A stretch of 64,000 nucleotides of DNA from Escherichia phage BF15, in the sequence record MW822007.1; one strand, 5' to 3'. The translations under genes and the position numbers were made by a program. Below are positions 21,908 through 61,037 of this stretch, piece by piece (within the stretch, counting starts at the first letter, position 1; every line of letters starts with the position of its first letter). A model generated the notes under the pieces. The model was given only the letters and a program-made list of their open reading frames with translations. It ran no database searches and was not told where the DNA came from.

Positions 21908-23107
<1,200 letters not shown>

Positions 23108-26157: not shown

Positions 26158-27336
26158 TTAAAAATATTTTTTAAAACTCATCATAACTTTATCATCAACA
26201 TCATTATCAATCTGTGCTACAAGGTAAGATGATAGTTCTACTTCTTGCGGCGCGGATTGAACATTATCAGAATTAAGGTATTCACGAATCCAAGGATATG
26301 GATGTTTAACCGGAGCATCGGTAATTGGGCATGGAAGACCGCACTGTTTCATACGAGATACAGTTAAGTAATCAATAAAGCTCCACATGCTATTTGTATT
26401 TAATCCAGGAACATCACCATCTTTAAATAAATGAACTGCCCAATCTTTTTCTTGGCGGTTAACTTCCATGAAAATATCAACTGCTTCTTGTTCACACTCT
26501 TGGGCAATTTTAACCCATTCATCACCATCAGTGCCAAGCTGAAGTTGACGAATAATATATTGGGTGCCTTTAAGGTGAAGCTGCTCATCACGAGCAATGA
26601 ACTTCATAATCTTGGCATTACCTTCCATGATTTCCATGTTCTTATGGAAGTTAAAGGTACATGCGAAAGATACATAAAAACGAATAGCTTCCAATGCGTT
26701 GATTACATGAAGGCAAAGATAAAGAGATTTCATTAGTGCTCGTTTAGCTTCGGCTTCTTGTTTAATAGCTCGATTTAAACGAAAATCAGCATCAGGAGAT
26801 TCTTTAGCTAGTTCTACAAATTCTTTAGCATTTTCCCATTCACGGGTCTTCTTAAGAACATCATCGTAATAGCGACCAATGGACTCAGCGCGTTTCATAA
26901 TATCTTCATCTAATACAATCTCATCAAATACCTTTGATGGGTCAGTATAAAGATTTCGCATGATATGAGTATATGAACGACTGTGAATAGTTTCACTAAA
27001 AGTCCATGTAGCAACCCATGTATCAAGGCTTGGGTCTGAAATTAATGACATAAGTACTGCAGACGGTGCACGACCCTGAATGCTATCTAGAAGTGATTGA
27101 TACTTCAGGTTATTAGTAAAAATATCTTGCTGATACTGAGGAAGCTTGTTAAATTGTGCAGCATCCATCATCAAGTTTACTTCTTCAGGGCGCCAGAAAA
27201 ATGATAATTGCTTTTCGGTTAAATCTTCAAAAACTTTATGGCGTTGAATATCATAACGCGCAATACCAAGACCTGAACCGAAGAACATAGGTTCTTTTAA
27301 AACATCAACTGGATTTGTATTAAAAACTGTGCTCAT
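26158..27336 (-). CDS. nrdB: Ribonucleotide reductase small subunit, uninterrupted
   Basis: 392 aa contiguous ORF; no intron or intron-encoded ORF. Confidence 0.95.
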   Translation of the reverse strand: MSTVFNTNPVDVLKEPMFFGSGLGIARYDIQRHKVFEDLTEKQLSFFWRPEEVNLMMDAAQFNKLPQYQQDIFTNNLKYQSLLDSIQGRAPSAVLMSLISDPSLDTWVATWTFSETIHSRSYTHIMRNLYTDPSKVFDEIVLDEDIMKRAESIGRYYDDVLKKTREWENAKEFVELAKESPDADFRLNRAIKQEAEAKRALMKSLYLCLHVINALEAIRFYVSFACTFNFHKNMEIMEGNAKIMKFIARDEQLHLKGTQYIIRQLQLGTDGDEWVKIAQECEQEAVDIFMEVNRQEKDWAVHLFKDGDVPGLNTNSMWSFIDYLTVSRMKQCGLPCPITDAPVKHPYPWIREYLNSDNVQSAPQEVELSSYLVAQIDNDVDDKVMMSFKKYF

Positions 27337-27387
27337 AAATTTTCCGCTTAGTTAATAGATAGTGACTCGTCCGTGAGTCAAATTATA

Positions 27388-29652
27388 TCATAATTTACAG
27401 GATGAACAATCTTCAGCTTTTGGAGTTTCTATTTCATAATCATCAGTACCAGAACCATCACGGGTATTATGATAATAGAAATTTTTTCCGCCAAAATACC
27501 AAAAGTACAAAAGGTCATCAATCATTACAGACATTGGAACCTTTCCTTTTGGAAAAATCTGCGGGTCATAATATGTATTCGCTGAAGCTGATTGACACAC
27601 CCATTTCAGCATAATAGCTACCTGCGTAAGATAAGGTTTATTACCTTTCTTAGCTAATTTCCACGTATAATCATAGAGGTCTATGTTATGCTCAATATTG
27701 GGCACGACTTGATTAAAGGAACCCTCTTTTGATTCTTTAACAGAGACTGGTCCACGTGGAGGCTCGATACCGTTTGTACTGTTAGAAACTTGGGAAGATG
27801 ACTCACATGGCATAAGTGCTGATAATGTGCTATTACGGATGCCAAAGAGCTTAAGGTCTTCCCGCAGCGCCGACCAGTCACAAACGTATTTTGGAGCTGC
27901 GATTTGGTCAATCTTTTTATTGTACCAGTCGATAGGTAATTCGCCTCGAGACCAACGAGTGTCTGAATAATATTCGCAAGGTCCTTTTTCTTTGGCGAGC
28001 TTAATGGATGCTTTAATGAGTCCATACTGTAATCTCTCAAATAGTTCATGTGTTAAATCGTTAGCATCTTCATAAGAAGCAAAGTTACTTGCCAGCCAAG
28101 CTGCATAGTTAGTAACACCTACGCCAAGGTTTCGACGTTTTTTAGCTTTTTCTGCTTCAGGAACTGGATATCCTTGGTAGTCCAAAAGATTATCAAGAGC
28201 GCGAACTTGGACTTCTGCCAATTCATTAATTTTATCTTGGTCTTGCCAATCGAAGTTATCCAACACAAATGCAGACAATGTACACAATCCAATTTCGGCA
28301 TCAGGACTATTCACGTCATTTGTTGGAATAGCAATTTCACAGCACAAGTTACTCTGGCGAATAGGTGCCTTTTCACGAATAAACGGAGTATAGTTATTCG
28401 TATTATCAATGAACTGTACATAAATCCTTGCTGTTCCTGATCGTTCAGTCATGAGCAATTCAAACAGTTCACGGGCTTTAATACGCTTTTTACGAATATT
28501 AGGGTCTTTTTCTGCGGCTTCATATAATTCACGGAAACGGTCTTGGTCTTTAAAATAAGAATAATAAAGCTCGCCACCCATTTCATGTGGACTAAACAAA
28601 GTAATGTAATCGTTCTTTCCAAAACGTTCCATCATCAAATCATTCAGCTGGACACCATAATCCATATGACGGATACGGTTTTCTTCTACGCCTTTGTTAT
28701 TTTTCAAAACGAGAAGATTTTCAACTTCCAAATGCCAAATAGGATAATAAGCAGTAGCAGCGCCGCCACGAATTCCGCCCTGTGAACATGATTTAACAGC
28801 AGTCTGAAAATGTTTCCAAAAAGGAATAACACCAGTATGACGCACTTCACCTGTGCCAATCTTAGAACCTTCGGCACGAATCATACCAACGTTAATGCCG
28901 ATTCCAGCTCGTTTGGAGATATATTCAACAATTGAAGCAGAAGCTTTGTTGATAGACTTCAGCGAATCACCTGCCTCAATAACAACGCATGAACTAAACT
29001 GCCGAGTTGGAGTACGACAACCAGCCATAATAGGAGTTGGCAATGAAATCTGTCGAGTAGATACTGCTTCATAAAAACGAATAACATGTTTTAATCTATC
29101 AACAGGTTCATCTTGATGCAATGCCATTCCAATAGTCATAAATGCAAACTGTGGAGTTTCATAAATTTGACCAGTGGTTTTATCTTTAACTAGATATTTT
29201 TCTTTTAACTGCATCGCCCCGGAATAAGTAAATTCCATATCCCGCTCGTGCTTAATTTTTGATTCTAAAAATGTAATTTCTTCTGCTGAATATTTTGACA
29301 ACAGTTCAGGGTCGTATTTACCTTCATTTACGCAGTAAGAAATATGGTCAATAAATGAACGTGGTTCATATTGCCCGTAAACATGCTTACGAAGAGCGAA
29401 CATTAAACAGCGCGCAGCTACATATTGATAATCAGGCTCTTCAACTGAAATAGAATTCGCAGCAGCCTTAATTACAATGGTTTGAATGTCATCAGTTGTC
29501 ATTCCATCACGGAGATATGATTTAATATTTTCATATAATTCATAAGGATCTACAGATGTTCCTTCAGCTGCCCAAGATAAAACTTTAATAATTTTTTGTG
29601 GGTCAAAGCTTTGAGAAACACCGCTACTTTTGATAACATTAATTAATTGCAT
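27388..29652 (-). CDS. nrdA: Ribonucleotide reductase large subunit
   Basis: 754 aa class I RNR alpha subunit. Confidence 0.95.
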   Translation of the reverse strand: MQLINVIKSSGVSQSFDPQKIIKVLSWAAEGTSVDPYELYENIKSYLRDGMTTDDIQTIVIKAAANSISVEEPDYQYVAARCLMFALRKHVYGQYEPRSFIDHISYCVNEGKYDPELLSKYSAEEITFLESKIKHERDMEFTYSGAMQLKEKYLVKDKTTGQIYETPQFAFMTIGMALHQDEPVDRLKHVIRFYEAVSTRQISLPTPIMAGCRTPTRQFSSCVVIEAGDSLKSINKASASIVEYISKRAGIGINVGMIRAEGSKIGTGEVRHTGVIPFWKHFQTAVKSCSQGGIRGGAATAYYPIWHLEVENLLVLKNNKGVEENRIRHMDYGVQLNDLMMERFGKNDYITLFSPHEMGGELYYSYFKDQDRFRELYEAAEKDPNIRKKRIKARELFELLMTERSGTARIYVQFIDNTNNYTPFIREKAPIRQSNLCCEIAIPTNDVNSPDAEIGLCTLSAFVLDNFDWQDQDKINELAEVQVRALDNLLDYQGYPVPEAEKAKKRRNLGVGVTNYAAWLASNFASYEDANDLTHELFERLQYGLIKASIKLAKEKGPCEYYSDTRWSRGELPIDWYNKKIDQIAAPKYVCDWSALREDLKLFGIRNSTLSALMPCESSSQVSNSTNGIEPPRGPVSVKESKEGSFNQVVPNIEHNIDLYDYTWKLAKKGNKPYLTQVAIMLKWVCQSASANTYYDPQIFPKGKVPMSVMIDDLLYFWYFGGKNFYYHNTRDGSGTDDYEIETPKAEDCSSCKL

Positions 29653-30209: not shown

Positions 30210-31070
30210 TTACACCGCCATTTTTCCTTTAATAGGAGGGTGTGATTCGTAACCTTTAAGAACGAAATCTTTAGGCCTGAGTTTAAGAACATATTCCAAT
30301 TGTTCTTTAGTAGAAAGATGGCGGAATTTATAAGGCAATCCGCCTATTACCAGTTCACAAAGCTCTTTAGGTTCACGACGTAAAATTTCTTTACATTGTT
30401 CCACGTGATTCATATAGATATGAGTATTACCGCCAGAAAATATCAAATCTCCAGGAATAAGATTACACATCTTAGCTACAATATGAACTAATGCAGCATA
30501 TGATGCAATATTAAATGGAAGACCGAGGAAAACATCTACCGAACGTTGATACCACTGCAAATCCAAATAGCCATTACGCACATTAAACTGATAGAACATA
30601 TGACAAGGCGGTAATGCCATATATTTAAGTTCAGCTGGATTCCACGCAGAAACAATTTGACGCCTATCATTTGGTAGTTTTTTAATACGATCAACAACTT
30701 CTACAATTTGGTCTACACCGCCAAAATCACGCCACTGTTTTCCATAAATTGGACCAAGTTCACCACTATGATATCCTAAATCTTTTGCTTGATTTTCGTA
30801 ATTTTCATCCCAGACTGTTTTGCCTTGAATTAATGAATCATGTTGAATTAATCGCAAATCATTGACATTTGTGCTTCCTGATAAAAACCATATTAGCTCA
30901 GCGATGCAAGCTTTCCAAGCGAGCTTCTTAGTCGTTACTGCAGGAAAACCTTTAGTTAAATCCCAGCGTAATTTAGTACCGAACAAAGCAATTGTTCCTG
31001 TGCCTGTTCGGTCATCGGTTTCATAGCCGTTTTCAAAAATGTCTTTAATTAAATCTTGGTATTGTTTCAT
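30210..31070 (-). CDS. td: Thymidylate synthase, uninterrupted
   Basis: 286 aa contiguous; PPCHMFYQF active-site region; no intron. Confidence 0.95.
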   Translation of the reverse strand: MKQYQDLIKDIFENGYETDDRTGTGTIALFGTKLRWDLTKGFPAVTTKKLAWKACIAELIWFLSGSTNVNDLRLIQHDSLIQGKTVWDENYENQAKDLGYHSGELGPIYGKQWRDFGGVDQIVEVVDRIKKLPNDRRQIVSAWNPAELKYMALPPCHMFYQFNVRNGYLDLQWYQRSVDVFLGLPFNIASYAALVHIVAKMCNLIPGDLIFSGGNTHIYMNHVEQCKEILRREPKELCELVIGGLPYKFRHLSTKEQLEYVLKLRPKDFVLKGYESHPPIKGKMAV

Positions 31071-31115
31071 TTAGTACCTTATATAAATTATAATACATTT
31101 TATGAAGCTAAATAA

Positions 31116-31475
31116 TCAATACGGTTTAGCATCAAATTTTCTTTCGATTTCAGGAGTGAAATATAATTCTTTACCACGCTTGGAAAAGCGACCAATAATA
31201 TGATAATTATTCTCATCAAACGTGATATTGCCAATATCCATAGCTTTCAACCAAATATCGATATTTCTATCCAGCTTTATATCAAAATTCCAATACGGAG
31301 AACTATTACCGAAAATACTGCAAGCGGATTCAGTGAAACAACTGCTATAAATCTTGTCTTTAGGAACTACTAATTGATAGACACCTTTAATAAACTGAGG
31401 ACCCTGCCATTTTGGTTGTTTCGCGTCTTTTTCCAATAGAATAGGGTAATAATTAAAGCTCATATTTTCCGCCAC
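31116..31475 (-). CDS. Hypothetical protein inserted between frd and td
   Basis: 119-aa track ORF with no function I can assign. Confidence 0.55.
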   Translation of the reverse strand: MAENMSFNYYPILLEKDAKQPKWQGPQFIKGVYQLVVPKDKIYSSCFTESACSIFGNSSPYWNFDIKLDRNIDIWLKAMDIGNITFDENNYHIIGRFSKRGKELYFTPEIERKFDAKPY

Positions 31476-31483
31476 GCGTTATT

Positions 31484-32310
<827 letters not shown>

Positions 32311-32318
32311 ATTATCTC

Positions 32319-32654
32319 CTAATATAAAGGATCGGGAACATATCCACTGGCTTTAATCATTTTAATTAACGTTAACATTCCTTTATTAACTGCTCGTGAG
32401 ATTTCATCAAAAACTTCATCACTAAAAAGTTCTAACACACCCTTCTGAACTTTTAATTTACATCCAACGATTTCGTCATCGCCTATAATAAATTCATTTC
32501 CGCCAATTCCACCGAAAAACTTAATTACACCAGTTAACTGTCTTCCACGAGAATATGGGTCGTGTGATAAAGTAATATGAGTCACCCCAGGTACAGTTTT
32601 AAATTGGCAGCGGATGTTTACTTGGGCAATTCCAGTTACGTGAATGTCAGACAT
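32319..32654 (-). CDS. Hypothetical protein
   Basis: 111-aa track ORF. Confidence 0.5.
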   Translation of the reverse strand: MSDIHVTGIAQVNIRCQFKTVPGVTHITLSHDPYSRGRQLTGVIKFFGGIGGNEFIIGDDEIVGCKLKVQKGVLELFSDEVFDEISRAVNKGMLTLIKMIKASGYVPDPLY

Positions 32655-34651: not shown

Positions 34652-34718
34652 TTTTATTTCCTTTTTAATTTAATTAACAGTTGGTGCTATGACGATGTAT
34701 GACCTCATAGCTGGTCAG
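34652..34718 (-). promoter_or_regulatory. Gene 32 translational operator: pseudoknot plus AU-rich unstructured gp32 binding region
   Basis: Minus strand GCUGACCAGCUAUGAGGUCAUACAUCGUCAUAGCAC can form an H-type pseudoknot, then UUAAUUAAAUUAAAAAGGAAAUAAAAAUG. Confidence 0.6.
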
Positions 34719-34750
34719 TGAGATAATTATAATCTATTTATAATAAGCAA

Positions 34751-46010: not shown

Positions 46011-46790
46011 ATGGCAGTAGTAGGAATCCCTGGTTGGATTGGGACTTCAGCCGTCGCTGAAACAGGCCAACGTTGGATGACAGCAGCTTCTAGAGAATTG
46101 CGTCTTGGTAACCCATCTTGGATGTCCCAATTCGCAGGCCGCTCAAGAGAAATTATTCACACACTTGGAGCAGACCATAACTTCAATGGTCAATGGTTCC
46201 GAGATAGATGTTTTGAGGCAGGTAGTGCACCTATAGTGTTTAATATTACAGGTGATTTAGTATCATATTCTAAAGATGTTCCTTTATTTTTCATGTATGG
46301 AGATACACCGAATGAATATGTTCAGTTGAATATACACGGCGTAACGATGTATGGACGTGGCGGTAATGGCGGTAGCAATAGTCCTGGCTCAGCTGGAGGT
46401 CATTGTATTCAAAACGATATTGGTGGGAGACTAAGAATTAATAATGGTGGAGCTATTGCAGGCGGCGGTGGCGGCGGTGGCGGCGGTAACAGGGGTAGAC
46501 TAGTATTTGGTGGCGGCGGTGGTCGTCCATTTGGTGCTGGTGGGTCTTCCTCTCATATGAGTGCTGGTGCAACCGCTGGCACCATTTACGCTCCGGGTGC
46601 AGGATCTGTCGGTGAGGGGTCTCTTAGTGCATATACAGGCGGGTCTGGTGGTGAAGTAGGTTCCGCGGGAGGTAGATGTAATACTCACGGTGCCGGTACA
46701 GAATATAACGGCGGAGCTGCTGGTTATGCTGTTATAGGGTCTGCTCCAACGTGGATAAATGTTGGAGCAATATATGGTCCAAGAGTATAA
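46011..46790 (+). CDS. 38: Receptor-recognising adhesin gp38 (T2-type, glycine-rich)
   Basis: 259 aa; multiple poly-Gly blocks ([21 protein letters not shown]) alternating with variable segments. Confidence 0.85.
46461..46487 (+). repeat. Coding trinucleotide repeat (GGCGGCGGT)x3 inside gene 38
   Basis: Direct tandem repeat encoding a Gly9 run. Confidence 0.7.
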
Positions 46791-55731: not shown

Positions 55732-57909
55732 TTAGGCCGCAAGGGCCTTCATAGTTTTAGCGATTTGGGAAACTTCATCATCACTTAAAGAGTTGCGATA
55801 TCCGATGAAGTCGGAAACAATACGGAATTTCTTGGTAAACTCAGCAACCATTTTATCACTGTTTTTTGAAGCATTATTTGATAATACATCAAAAAGATTA
55901 GTTACTGTCCAGATGTCATGACCGATGGTATCTTTTCCACCATTAAAATATACACCCTGTAATGAACTAACCATATTAGCAAGTCGTGTATATTCTTCAG
56001 AAACTTCATCTACGCTGAAGTACTTCATCATAAAATCTAATTCAGGATACTTGATAATTTTATCAATATATCGTTTAGCTGAACTTGAATAACCTACATA
56101 CTTATCATAATCTACATCATCAAAAGCATCTACATATAAATCACGCAAAGCTTCAAAAATACATTGGCACTGACCGAGTTCTTTTACCTTTTTCTGTAAA
56201 AGCGGACGAATAACATAAAATTCATTAATGCCAATAAGATTAGCCATACGAATCAAAATATTCATAGATGGATGACAAAGAGATGTAGTACCATCCATAG
56301 AGAAAATATCAGAACGATGCATATACGCTACATAACCAGTAATTTCATCTGCTTCTGACGTGAGCGTAAATAGTTCCTCTTTTTCCCATCGCCCATCTTT
56401 AATTTCAAATTTAAATGCTGTAGCAGCTTTAGGACGAGGAGCTTTACTTTTAACTACCTTTGGAATATAGCTTTTAACTAAAGCTTCAATTTCTGACAAA
56501 TAATGAATGTTAACTTCATCACTTTCAAACATCGCCATAATATCAGGGAGTAAATCAATCTGCGATTCTACTTCTGGATTAATAAACAGAAGACGCTCAT
56601 TGTGATGAATATTCAAAGTGTTATTAAATTCACTATCATCTAACGCATGTGCTAATCCACGAACAATATTAACACGATTTTTAATATCATCAATAACGAT
56701 ATTAATTTTTGTTGTATTAATACCAAACAGACGATAACTTGATGCAACGGCTGAAGTTTCATGACTTTGCTTAATGCGCTTCAGTCGAGGGTCAAGATTT
56801 ACTTCATACACAACTCCTGCATTGCATAACTTACTGTCAGGTTCAAACATGCTCTGCATCTTTTTATATGACAGATTTTTAGTCGTGAATTTAACTGAAT
56901 TACTAATCATATAATCTCGAGCAGAATACCCCATCTTCATCAATTCACGATATGTGTGACGAGGAGATGTAGATTCTTTAAATCGTTTTACATCTTCATT
57001 AAATGCTTTCTCACTGAGTTCTTTAACTCGTTCAATAATATTTTTACGAGTACGATCATCCAGCGAAAGAGCCTCGCGAGATGGAGCAATATCAAGTGAA
57101 CCCATTGGAAACTTAATGTAATTCACTTCATTGCGAATGCTTAGCCAGTTACGGTCTCTAATAACACCATCGATAGGATAAACAATACCGCCATAGATAG
57201 CATACAATCCGCCGCGATCTGGCCAGTATCTTTCTGGATTTACACCGTAATAGTCGTCAAAATCCGGAAAATAATCAATTTCGCGGTCAAGACCATTAAT
57301 GATAGCCAAATCTTTGAATGGTCGCATGATATAAGAAACTTCATAAGCAAAGTTTCTAAAGTCTTTTTCTTCAACTGGAACTACGATTTCAATACCAGTT
57401 TTATCATCTGGACCCATTTCTTTTACGAATGTAGGTTTAATCTGTGGACCATCACCGTCCATATAAGCTACATAACCACGAATTTCACCTTTATGGTATG
57501 AAGTAATACTAAACGTATCAGTATAACTAAATGGAGATTTAGAACCTAAACCAAATCCGCCAATAAAGTCATTAGATTCAGCCTTAGATGAACTAAAGTA
57601 TGAATTATACAACCCAGGAGAATTATCATCACCTTGAATATCAAAATCACTCATACCCGGACCAAAATCTCGACAAACAAATCGTGGGTCTAAACGTCCA
57701 GGAACTTGTATGATAAATTTTTCAGGATTTCCATTAAGTGCATGGGCATCAATCATGTTAGTAATTAATTCACGGACTACTGCGCGAATCTTGTTTGTAT
57801 ACAAATCAGATGACAGAATTTTAAATACTTTAGGATTTGCTGCGATGCTAAATGCTTTTGATTTAGAACCATTACCAAGAATTGTTTCTTTTTCAGTGGT
57901 GATAATCAT
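55732..57909 (-). CDS. rIIA: rIIA protein
   Basis: 725 aa as in T4; synteny. Confidence 0.9.
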
Positions 57910-57919
57910 AATTTCCTCA

Positions 57920-58123
57920 TTAATTCATATTACGCTTAATAACTTCGGCAACTTCTAGTAGTTCATCTTTAGTTGCGGTGTCGGATTGAATTTTATCTCT
58001 AATATCCTTAAAGCGGTTTTTAAATTCTTCGGCTTCTCCCATATCGAAAAAGCGTTGAATGATTCTATATTCTCGATGAACTGCTTTATCAAAAAGTTCT
58101 AAATTTACTTTATATGATTTCAT
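57920..58123 (-). CDS. Hypothetical protein (rIIA.1 position)
   Basis: 67-aa track ORF. Confidence 0.6.
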
Positions 58124-58148: not shown

Positions 58149-58178
58149 ATTATACCACATCCTTGTGGTAAAGTAAAC
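58149..58178 (-). promoter_or_regulatory. T4-type early promoter
   Basis: Minus strand GTTTACTTTACCACAAGGATGTGGTATAAT. Confidence 0.55.
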
Positions 58179-58710
58179 TACTGGCTCATCCATTCTTTAC
58201 GAAGGTCAGCGTTATCTCCCATGAGCATTTCAAAAAGCTCTTTCCAGTTCTCAGGAAGTTTAACAACATCATATACTGGGTTTTGAATCATCTCACGATA
58301 TTCAGATTTTTCCAAAGAGCCAAGTCCCTTAATATAACGGATGCTATGTTTAGGTAGAGCATCTTTAGCACTCTCATATTCAGCGACTGTATAAAACCAT
58401 TCTTGTTTTTTACCGACCTGAGCGATGATTACAGGAGTTTTGACAAAGCGAATTCGTCCTTGCTCAAACAATTCTGGCCAATTACTAAAAAATCCGAGCA
58501 GAGAAGGATAAATAGAACCTAATCCAATAATCTCTTAATTATGAGGTATTTCTATAGATAGCCCGAAGGCTATCCATCGTGATCTGCGTCTGTCATAATA
58601 GCGACATTCGCATAGTTCATTGAAGAGGATTTAATAGAACGACGAACATTGTTCTGCAATTTATATTTTTTCATATCAACGCTAGAAGAATCAATTTTTA
58701 CAAATTTCAT
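58178..58710 (-). CDS. 60: Topoisomerase II small subunit gp60, made by translational bypass of a 50-nt coding gap
   Basis: 46-codon segment MKFVKIDSS...TDADHDG ends GGA-UAG; second segment LGSIYPSLLGFFSNWPELFEQGRIRF... resumes after a matching GGA; the track splits it into 58570..58761 and 58178..58471. Confidence 0.9.
58523..58572 (-). other. 50-nt non-decoded coding gap of gene 60 (take-off GGA, UAG stop, take-off hairpin, landing GGA)
   Basis: Minus strand GAU-GGA-UAG-CCUUCGGGCUAUCUAUAGAAAUACCUCAUAAUUAAGAGAUUAUUG-GA-UUA; UUCG tetraloop hairpin at take-off. Confidence 0.9.
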
Positions 58711-59509
58711 TATACACCTCATAGAACTTTTCATCAGGAATCCAACCGCGTTTAAATTCATTAAATGCTCGGCCGAATAATTTTGAATTCACAGTTATAT
58801 TATTAACTGATTTCCATTTAGCAACTCCCGTTCGTTTATAATGATCGGGGTCATATTTCGTGACGTACCATTCATATAAATTTGGTATTAATTTTACAGC
58901 CTCTGGATTTGTCGCTGATTTATTATACCATGGTTTCGCTTTTTCAAGTTCAGCTGCTTTTGCAGTAGCAGCAACAGTATTTCCAATACCAACTAATTTT
59001 TCAGCTTTAATGCGTGGATCATTAACATGAAGACGAAAAACTTCGCCTTTTTCATTTTTAAAGCATGTCATGCCTTTAATTCCAGGAAGCTTAACACCTT
59101 TATTAACACCGCACCATTCCTTTGGGTTAAATGATCCTTTAATTAATAAGGCGCATTTACCCGATTTAATACTTCTCATTAAAACTTTATCTTTCATAAA
59201 GTTTTTTGACCATTCAGATACTGCTCTTTGATGGTAAATTCTAGCAATTTCATATAATTTACTAGAACGTAAATATTTTTCAGTGTTTAACATTCTATTC
59301 ATCGCATATGCCATTTCACGATTACGATGAATTTTATATAGTAGAAAATGTGCTAAAAAATGTTCACGAAAAGTCAGTTTCACCAAATTTTCTTTATCAT
59401 CAGAACCTCCCATTGATCTTGGAAGGATATGATGAATTTCACCCTTAAATTTAGAAACGCGGGTTTTACCCCGCACTATTAAGTCATTATAGATTTTTTC
59501 GTAATTCAC
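58691..59509 (-). CDS. mobA: HNH homing endonuclease between genes 39 and 60
   Basis: 272 aa; EIHHILPRSMGGSDDKENLVKLTFREHFLAH HNH motif; non-ATG start in the track. Confidence 0.75.
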   Translation of the reverse strand: MNYEKIYNDLIVRGKTRVSKFKGEIHHILPRSMGGSDDKENLVKLTFREHFLAHFLLYKIHRNREMAYAMNRMLNTEKYLRSSKLYEIARIYHQRAVSEWSKNFMKDKVLMRSIKSGKCALLIKGSFNPKEWCGVNKGVKLPGIKGMTCFKNEKGEVFRLHVNDPRIKAEKLVGIGNTVAATAKAAELEKAKPWYNKSATNPEAVKLIPNLYEWYVTKYDPDHYKRTGVAKWKSVNNITVNSKLFGRAFNEFKRGWIPDEKFYEVYNEICKN

Positions 59510-61037
59510 CTACTGTTATCCATTTACCATTAATCTGTACTTCATCATTTTCATTTACGATAATTGTATCGCCATTTAGTTCGAAAGTAAACCACTCGCC
59601 ATCTTCTTTTTCTTCAAACGCCTTTTCACCGAGAACTAGACCAGTGATTGCGCAAATATCAAATAGTTCTTTGTTTTTAAGCATATCTGCATAAGACATA
59701 CCCCAACTGTTGAGAACTTTACCGCGCAATGGATAACCACCATGAAGTTCTTTATCACGAACATCAATAAGATATCCGATAGCAGAATCACCCTCAGTCA
59801 AGAAAAGAGTAGTGTCAGCATCTTTACCGCAAAGATTCGCTTTGATATGTTTATGAACCTTAGCTTTAGAAGCCTTTTTAGCTGCTTTAGTTTCTGCTGC
59901 TTTTTCTGCCGCCAATTTACGAGCCAAAGCAGCTTCAATAATCGGCATCAAAATCGCTTCATTATTTAGAATAGCACGTGAAATCTTTTTAGCATCAAGT
60001 TGAATATGACTACGGATTTCGCCAAATGGAGAAGTCAAACGCTCTTTAGTTTGAGAATCAAATCGCATGTTTTTCATATCACGAACAAACATAATGATAG
60101 TCAAACATTCTTTAACACGTGCTTTAGTCACATCAATTTTGAACTTACGTTTGATTTGTGGAATAAGGTCTTCACAAATATCATCCATAACACAGTCAAT
60201 GTGATGGCCACCATTCTTAGTGTGGATGTTATTGACGTATGTTAATTGACGAAAACCATCCGGTGAACGACCAACTGCAATAGAACAGTTTTCTTGTTCT
60301 TGAACGATAGCATGCTCATCATACTGTCGTGCATATTTCTTAAAATTGCCCTGAACCTTTTTACCATTAAAGGTAAATTGAATATCAGGATAAACAACAG
60401 CAAGTGTCTGGAGACGATCTAGTGTAATGTCAAGATAAACTTGGGACAGCTCATTAGTTTCAAATGACATAAAATCGGGAATGAAAGTAACACGAGTTCC
60501 TTTCCATTTTCCAGGAATATCTTCCCATGATTTATTTTCCATGCCATTTGAACAACGAACTACAATATTATTTTGACCATCACCAGTTTCACCGACAAAC
60601 ATCACAGAAAAAATGTTTGTCAAACTAGAACCAACACCATTCATACCGCCAGTGACGCGTTCTTTATCATCACCGAAGTTACCACCTGCTTTTGGAATAG
60701 TCCATGCAGCAACAGGACCAGGAATTTCTTCACCGGTAGGTGTTTTAACCATCGCTTGTGGAATACCACGACCGTTATCTTCAACTGTTACTTGATTGTT
60801 TTTAATAGTAACATTAATTTTATTTGCGAATTTAAACTTAGTACGAATACTTTCATCTACTGAGTTATCGATAATTTCATCAATAAGCTTAACAAGACCA
60901 GGTACATACTGAACACTTTCCCATTTACCAAACAGAAAGCGCTCATGCATTTCATTAGCAGAAGAGCCAATATACATGCCGCTACGCTTTTTGATATGTT
61001 CAATATCGCTCAGAATTTTAATTTCATTCTTAATCAT
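59487..61037 (-). CDS. 39: Topoisomerase II large (ATPase) subunit gp39
   Basis: 516 aa from second Met; GHKL ATPase motifs (IIDNSVDE, DNGRGIP). Confidence 0.9.
   Translation of the reverse strand: MIKNEIKILSDIEHIKKRSGMYIGSSANEMHERFLFGKWESVQYVPGLVKLIDEIIDNSVDESIRTKFKFANKINVTIKNNQVTVEDNGRGIPQAMVKTPTGEEIPGPVAAWTIPKAGGNFGDDKERVTGGMNGVGSSLTNIFSVMFVGETGDGQNNIVVRCSNGMENKSWEDIPGKWKGTRVTFIPDFMSFETNELSQVYLDITLDRLQTLAVVYPDIQFTFNGKKVQGNFKKYARQYDEHAIVQEQENCSIAVGRSPDGFRQLTYVNNIHTKNGGHHIDCVMDDICEDLIPQIKRKFKIDVTKARVKECLTIIMFVRDMKNMRFDSQTKERLTSPFGEIRSHIQLDAKKISRAILNNEAILMPIIEAALARKLAAEKAAETKAAKKASKAKVHKHIKANLCGKDADTTLFLTEGDSAIGYLIDVRDKELHGGYPLRGKVLNSWGMSYADMLKNKELFDICAITGLVLGEKAFEEKEDGEWFTFELNGDTIIVNENDEVQINGKWITVGELRKNL

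Follow-up and report, generated by a model that had tools for sequence, protein, structure and literature searches.

A T4-like mobA/gene 60 bypass cassette in the topoisomerase locus of Escherichia phage BF15

The closest described system is the MobA/gene 60 cassette of phage T4 (Bonocora 2011; Manning & Atkins 2022, clade 1). According to Edgell (2010), T4 MobA is a promoter-less cassette that nicks its target and shows high-frequency inheritance. The cassette model and self-immunity through the bypass gap have been published for T4 (Bonocora 2011, cited second-hand; Manning & Atkins 2022), and the split topoisomerase has been described as active, the insertion hanging outside the TOPRIM domain. 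The window analysed here, 64 000 nt of Escherichia phage BF15 (MW822007.1), is like T4 at this locus in gene order, insertion site, overlaps (23 and 20 nt), GTG start, gene 60 leader and gap. It differs from the T4 cassette by 4 substitutions in 1107 nt and by A169 against T169 in T4T. The genome background differs as well: the N-terminal part of gene 39 is 97.4% identical to that of T4T, the td and nrdB introns, mobE and segG are missing, and gp38 is of the adhesin type.

Other systems share single features with the cassette. T4 MobE, a free-standing HNH endonuclease encoded between nrdA and nrdB, belongs to the same Mob family, and the 5' HNH-coding approximately 180 nt of mobA are approximately 71% identical to mobE of RB3-like phages. 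Like MobA, MobE nicks one strand and is over-inherited in crosses (Edgell 2010); unlike MobA, it targets nrdB, lies between genes in T4 without splitting one, has no bypass element and is absent from the window. I-HmuI and I-HmuII of Bacillus phages resemble MobA in having an N-terminal HNH nuclease and an extended DNA-binding region and in initiating by a single-strand nick (Edgell 2010), but they lie inside self-splicing introns, and MobA is without a Pfam-detectable NUMOD. The mobE insertion of Aeromonas phage Aeh1 splits the essential nrdA into two polypeptides that reassemble (PMC3045599; Edgell 2010); it is like the cassette in this, and differs from it in the enzyme and in having no translational bypass. 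The mitochondrial 'byp' elements of Magnusiomyces capitatus are, like the gap, short inserts in coding sequence skipped by ribosomes between matched codons. They differ from the cassette in having no endonuclease, in belonging to a different genetic system and in occurring in many copies per genome.

The split locus and its open mobA frame

Between 55.7 and 61.0 kb the minus strand of the window has the T4 order rIIA, rIIA.1, gene 60, mobA and gene 39 (table 1). The mobA ORF of the window's ORF listing begins MNYEKIYNDLIVRGKTRVSKFKGEIHHILPRSMGGSDDKENLVKLTFREHFLAH, is an HNH ORF within the 269–279 aa range taken for membership, and is read in a frame different from those of the two split genes, overlapping gene 39 by 23 nt (59487–59509) and gene 60 by 20 nt (58691–58710). 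The lengths of gp39 (516 aa) and gp60 (160 aa) are those of the T4T annotation. The preliminary description had placed a 272-aa, mobA-like ORF between gene 39 and the bypass-bearing gene 60, overlapping both; the measured overlaps bear this out and, at 99.6% amino-acid identity to T4T MobA, mobA-like can be sharpened to mobA itself. With a probability of roughly 0.9, the ORF is the mobA of the T4 mobA/gene 60 bypass cassette, an approximately 1.1-kb selfish element inserted where the topoisomerase II large-subunit gene codes for TOPRIM.

Table 1. Features of the locus and its surroundings (window coordinates).
Feature	Position	Strand	Remarks
rIIA	55732–57909	minus	T4 gene order
rIIA.1	57920–58123	minus	T4 gene order
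Gene 60	58178–58710	minus	Pfam TOPRIM_C and DNA_gyraseB_C in distal part; downstream of mobA
Gene 60, codons 47–160	58178–58522	minus	C-terminal part of TOPRIM/GyrB-C region; TOPRIM_C, DNA_gyraseB_C
Whole mobile insert	58514–59620	minus	approximately 1107 nt, both ends ±2 nt; aligned to T2 and T6 by MAFFT
Bypass gap	58523–58572	minus	50 nt, predicted untranslated; UAG ... landing GGA; maps onto T4T misc_feature 2803–2852
Take-off stem-loop	58554–58577	minus	10 bp, UUCG loop, holds take-off GGA and UAG; RNA fold
Gene 60, codons 1–46	58573–58710	minus	30-aa insert-encoded N-terminal head and 16 aa MNYANVAIMTDADHDG; ends at take-off GGA
mobA	58691–59509	minus	free-standing HNH homing endonuclease, 272 aa; GTG directly after in-frame TAG
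HNH (beta-beta-alpha-metal) catalytic core	59348–59440	minus	MobA residues 24–54: E24, H26, H27, N41, H50, H54
Gene 39	59487–61037	minus	516 aa, N-terminal fragment of topoisomerase II large subunit; Pfam HATPase_c (GHKL ATPase) and DNA_gyraseB; upstream of mobA
gp39 C-terminal extension	about 59490–59618	minus	43 aa, insert-encoded, FEEKEDGEW...GELRKNL, after ...GLVLGEKA

The protein was identical to T4T MobA ('homing endonuclease, H-N-H family') at 271 of 272 residues, and the insert to that of T4T at 1103 of 1107 nt. Salmonella phage Lv5cm carried the same insert without a single difference (1107/1107). Over the 3-kb region, phage EC128 reached 98.8% identity and several T4 records 98.5%; the best 25-kb match in the phage collection was approximately 94% identical. 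MobA matched PHROG 655 'homing endonuclease' at E 2.5e-57, and the database search returned full-length relatives at 48–58% identity together with many sequences that share just the N-terminal approximately 90 residues and carry NUMOD motifs. A chance ORF is excluded by the identity to T4T MobA, the PHROG match and the full-length relatives.

Eleven carriers were compared: the window phage, T4T, EC128, Manna, e11/2, ESh36, HY03, PEC04, HY01, Lv5cm and G50. Residue 169 is Ala in the window phage and nine others, the Thr being private to T4T. All 11 have 272 uninterrupted codons behind a GTG start, which rules out a frameshifted pseudogene, named beforehand as a result that would speak against the assignment. 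In the old T4 reference (AF158101/NC_000866), mobA is dotted with 11 additional single bases, most of them G, which break it into a 'mobA pseudogene' and a '60.1' (AF158101.6, 1092–1899, compared with HM137666.1, 1092–1910; window 59170–59393). The 819-nt mobA ORF is intact in at least 10 other T4 records (T4T, KJ477684–6, MT984581, OL964735/45, OZ209023/57 and OZ035787). The 'pseudogene in lab T4', taken up again in a preprint of 2022, probably goes back to an artefact in that old record. One carrier record names mobA 'MobE'.

An in-frame TAG lies immediately 5' of the mobA GTG, so that no start further upstream is possible. The next in-frame candidates are a GTG at codon 12 and an ATG at codon 33; initiation at either would remove a conserved N-terminal helix, and ATG33 lies inside the HNH core. 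Relatives start at an aligned M-x-Y, with M1, Y3 and Y7 at least 90% conserved in an alignment of 50 sequences. No convincing Shine–Dalgarno sequence was seen before the GTG, and a scan for promoters and terminators yielded no signal particular to mobA, promoter-like sites being scarcer than in shuffled sequence. Pairing of an upstream GGAUA, suggested by an RNA fold at the start, was set aside, as it was not better than in shuffles (z −1.7). Over codons 12–18 of mobA lies a GC-rich hairpin, GCGGGG-UAAAAC-CCCGC (59455–59475), followed by a U-rich run and kept in T4; the scan did not list it among terminators, and it folded no better than shuffles. For T4, the GUG start, the 23-bp overlap with gene 39 and probable re-initiation from gene 39 translation were described by Edgell (2010).

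Diversity in the insert was about a quarter of that in the gene 39 sequence next to it. Mean pairwise divergence among the 11 carriers was 0.76% in the insert, 3.1% in the N-terminal part of gene 39 and 1.8% downstream of the insert, and the binned profile ran at 0–1.7% inside the insert against 3–5% upstream, as expected for an element that spreads horizontally. A special scar in the 104 nt that border the insert on its upstream side (5.8% diversity) was considered and dropped, the binned profile there lying within the 3–5% typical of gene 39. Between the window and T4T there were 4 differences in 1107 nt of insert and 37 in 1417 nt of flank (Fisher p = 3e-6). The identical insert of Lv5cm stands beside 49 differences in 1313 nt of the N-terminal part of gene 39 (3.7%), which suggests that the transfer was recent; the window data fit the evidence of Manning & Atkins (2022) that the element has lately spread within the clade.

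These data bear on whether the cassette is an immobile relic, its intact mobA unexpressed or inactive and retained since genes 39 and 60 now need the tails that the insert encodes. The progressive decay described for the element in some lineages (Manning & Atkins 2022), the want of a clear ribosome-binding site before the GTG and the absence of a promoter excess in the region would agree with this. Against it, the catalytic residues as well as the open frame are kept in 11/11 carriers, the insert is identical to that of Lv5cm despite the different flanks, and the protein is one residue away from T4T MobA, for which nicking and high-frequency inheritance were reported (Edgell 2010). We regard a relic as improbable.

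Junctions and bypass element

At the site of the insert, T2 and T6 have a single uninterrupted gene 39 of 605 codons. Identity to T2 and T6 extends to ...GGTGAAAA(A/G)GC at about 59620 and returns at ATTTATCC... at 58513; in T2 coordinates the break falls at nt approximately 1417 (codon approximately 472) and identity is back at nt 1482. Thus 1107 nt in the window replace approximately 65 nt of the T2 allele, in line with the approximately 1.1 kb at about codon 470, replacing approximately 55–75 nt, by which the cassette is recognized. A comparison of the junctions with T4, T2 and T6 had been proposed in the preliminary description; it gave an insert shared with T4 and absent from T2 and T6, and the claim that the cassette sits in an ancestrally uninterrupted gene is upheld by the replacement of approximately 65 nt of an otherwise continuous gene.

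The insert provides gp39 with its C-terminal tail and gp60 with an N-terminal head and a homologous replacement segment. The 16 codons of that segment, MNYANVAIMTDADHDG, stand in for the deleted T2 TOPRIM codons LNYHNIAIMTDADHDG, with a nucleotide identity of approximately 71% (46/65). Codons 1–46 of gene 60 are identical to T4T and form the first piece of its joined CDS, and the first 9 nt of the second part (58514–58522) are still insert sequence. For the clade 1 MobA element, Manning & Atkins (2022) gave 1097–1106 nt, a C-terminal extension of approximately 44 aa, an N-terminal extension of 44–46 aa and 9 extra nt after the gap; by alignment, the window insert matches this element in size and layout.

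It might be argued that the split 39/60 pair is ancestral, the continuous gene of T2 and T6 having arisen by loss of the insert, so that the ORF would mark no insertion. Secondary re-fusion after element loss has been reported in Aeromonas phages (Manning & Atkins 2022). Among approximately 530 related phage records, however, 42 carry mobA at at least 95% identity and approximately 490 are without the cassette. The T2 junction segment is only approximately 71% identical to the stand-in copy, and a simple deletion therefore cannot yield the T2 allele; T2 and T6 also show neither the C- nor the N-terminal extension that is retained after re-fusion, and diversity within the insert is far below that of the flanks. 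An ancestral split is accordingly very improbable.

Within the inserted cassette, the take-off GGA lies at 58573–58575, the UAG at 58570–58572 and the landing GGA at 58523–58525. The locus has a 50-nt gap identical in sequence to that of T4, matched GGA codons, a stop directly after take-off and a take-off stem-loop, whose role in bypass is taken from published work. All published bypass signals are thus present by sequence identity, and a hop giving full-length gp60 is predicted. No Rfam family was found for the bypass region, the sole match being sub-threshold and looking like chance. Two variants occur inside the gap of other carriers: HY01 and PEC04 have A for T at 58553, and these two and G50 have G for A at 58556. 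Both are just 3' of the take-off hairpin, and the window has the T4 version. In most public annotations of carriers gene 60 is split into two CDSs, or one part is labelled 'frameshift' or 'hypothetical', and the parts are not joined across the gap.

HNH assignment of MobA

In an alignment of 50 relatives, G35, N41, H50 and H54 were invariant and E24, H26 and H27 at least 90% conserved, with the H...N...H spacing of an HNH motif. MobA alone scored 20.1 bits against Pfam HNH PF01844 (E 7e-4, residues 24–43), below the 21.4-bit gathering cutoff. Among the 50 relatives, 34 matched HNH (best 9.3e-6), 19 HNH_5, 8 HNH_4, 16 NUMOD3 and 4 an I-HmuI NUMOD-like domain. The HNH signature read from the sequence at the outset is in this way supported at the level of the family, while MobA itself falls just under the Pfam cutoff. 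No NUMOD motif was detected in MobA by Pfam search; it is therefore not classed with the I-HmuI-like NUMOD homing endonucleases, and the analogy to nicking HNH enzymes stands.

A PDB sequence search gave weak matches (E 0.0095–0.81), 5 of 7 being HNH domains over residues 23–56 (group II intron maturase, Cas8f-HNH, McrA) and the other 2 a segment of T4 gp6 (residues 60–111) and a stray thiolase. In NCBIfam the only match was weak and local, to the HNH part of IscB. AlphaFold models had a pLDDT of 85 over the full length and 93 for residues 1–80, with strands at 24–27 and 42–45 followed by a helix at 47–61. The top Foldseek matches of the N-terminal domain model were almost all HNH nucleases (Cas8-HNH, IscB, McrA, Gme nicking enzyme, pyocin S2, colicin E9, Cas9 HNH) at a TM of about 0.5, none significant (E ≥ 0.17). 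Searches with the full-length model were non-specific, and the C-terminal half gave weak helix-turn-helix-like matches.

On the family-level evidence the HNH assignment is secure. That the ORF encodes something else, such as a DNA-binding regulator with an HH...N...H-like string, could be argued from the Pfam score under the curated cutoff and from the structural matches short of significance, but is highly improbable, since all matches in sequence or structure over residues 23–54 were HNH domains, from group II intron maturase and the nicking enzyme Gme to colicin E9 and pyocin S2, and the catalytic positions are conserved in 50 relatives, 34 of them with a Pfam HNH match. The helical residues 60–112 (59174–59332) are weakly like domain III of the C-terminus of the T4 baseplate protein gp6 in two independent searches, Pfam giving Gp6_C-III at a sub-cutoff E of 8e-4 and the PDB giving 9f4a at E 0.18; the likeness between helices is probably due to chance.

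Genome context, proposed mechanism and significance

The context was compared between the window and T4T. In the window td (30210–31070) and nrdB (26158–27336) are single uninterrupted ORFs, and nrdA is likewise complete. The 598-nt nrdB intron of T4T with I-TevIII is absent (clean junction at 26660/26663), as are the 1016-nt td intron with I-TevI (clean junction at 30521/30522) and the approximately 700-nt mobE, just 55 nt (27337–27391) separating nrdB from nrdA. Gene 59 directly follows gene 32 (34652–34750), and segG is therefore missing. The statement that td and nrdB are free of introns thus proved right, and mobA alone is present among the T4 homing elements for which this stretch was examined.

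The 259-aa gp38 (46011–46790) is of the adhesin type (Pfam GP38, 1.3e-69), which we take to be the type of T2 and T6 and not the chaperone type of T4; with this assignment, from established knowledge, the T2-type fibre tip of the preliminary description is retained. Its further claim of independent assortment of mobile elements also holds, since mobA is present and four other T4 elements of the region are missing, T4 having all of them and T2 being without mobA. Patchy, independent assortment is a known pattern for the homing elements of T-even phages (Edgell 2010).

Several stretches of the window had no counterpart in T4T. Approximately 405 nt separate td and frd (31074–31478), which abut in T4T, and include a 119-aa ORF with a GTG start (31116–31475) without a Pfam match. 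Downstream of frd, approximately 510 nt (32085–32597) are absent from T4T at the DNA level; an 81-aa ORF there (32065–32310) had no Pfam match, and a 111-aa ORF lying mostly within the extra DNA (32319–32654) matched DUF7247 at 1.5e-43. Approximately 296 nt between pseT and the equivalent of pseT.1 (22810–23104) were unmatched in the T4T segment compared.

By analogy with the published work on the near-identical T4 element, MobA activity, homing and bypass may be expected in the window phage. The gene 39 transcript would yield MobA in small amounts, translation starting at the GUG that overlaps the final 23 nt of gene 39. Should a phage with the uninterrupted gene infect the same cell, MobA would nick one strand in the region encoding ...NYHNIAIMTDADHDG, and recombinational repair off the cassette-bearing genome would copy the whole insert and some flank into the recipient. 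The approximately fourfold lower diversity of the insert and its identity in divergent flanks are indirect signs in favour of such inheritance. The insert would give gp39 its 43-aa tail and gp60 a new start and 30-aa head, and would also bring the 50-nt gap and a diverged version of the codons that were deleted. The gap would disrupt MobA's own target and so confer self-immunity; ribosomes would hop it from GGA46 to the matching GGA, and an active topoisomerase would still form from gp39, gp60 and gp52.

Earlier publications already cover the cassette model, the GUG start and the 23-bp overlap, as well as the patchy occurrence among T-even phages (Bonocora 2011; Edgell 2010; Manning & Atkins 2022). 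Though correct, the finding is an ordinary one, a known and already explained element in one more Tequatrovirus, which opens no new question. Annotators should retain the GTG start, enter gene 60 as a single CDS joined across the gap, and not call mobA a pseudogene on the strength of the old T4 record.

The cassette is a textbook curiosity in which a selfish endonuclease splits an essential topoisomerase gene and is self-protected by the only well-studied bacterial 50-nt ribosomal hop. Worked out in T4, it is by now on record for dozens of phages, and the window contributes one more observation on how patchily it is distributed and how little its sequence varies. The closest matches to the N-terminal part of the window gene 39 (98.1–97.9%) outrank every known carrier, the best of which, EC128, comes 24th at 97.8%. 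One of these closest matches, RB14, is annotated '60plus39', a fused gene; the others are absent from the full-length 3-kb matches listed. It is conceivable, and we put it forward tentatively from these comparisons, that the window phage gained the cassette very recently by homing from an Lv5cm- or T4-like donor, with a short upstream co-conversion tract (approximately 100 nt or less). If so, this lineage would be a natural record of a homing event and would let wild co-conversion lengths be measured across the approximately 42 sequenced carriers.
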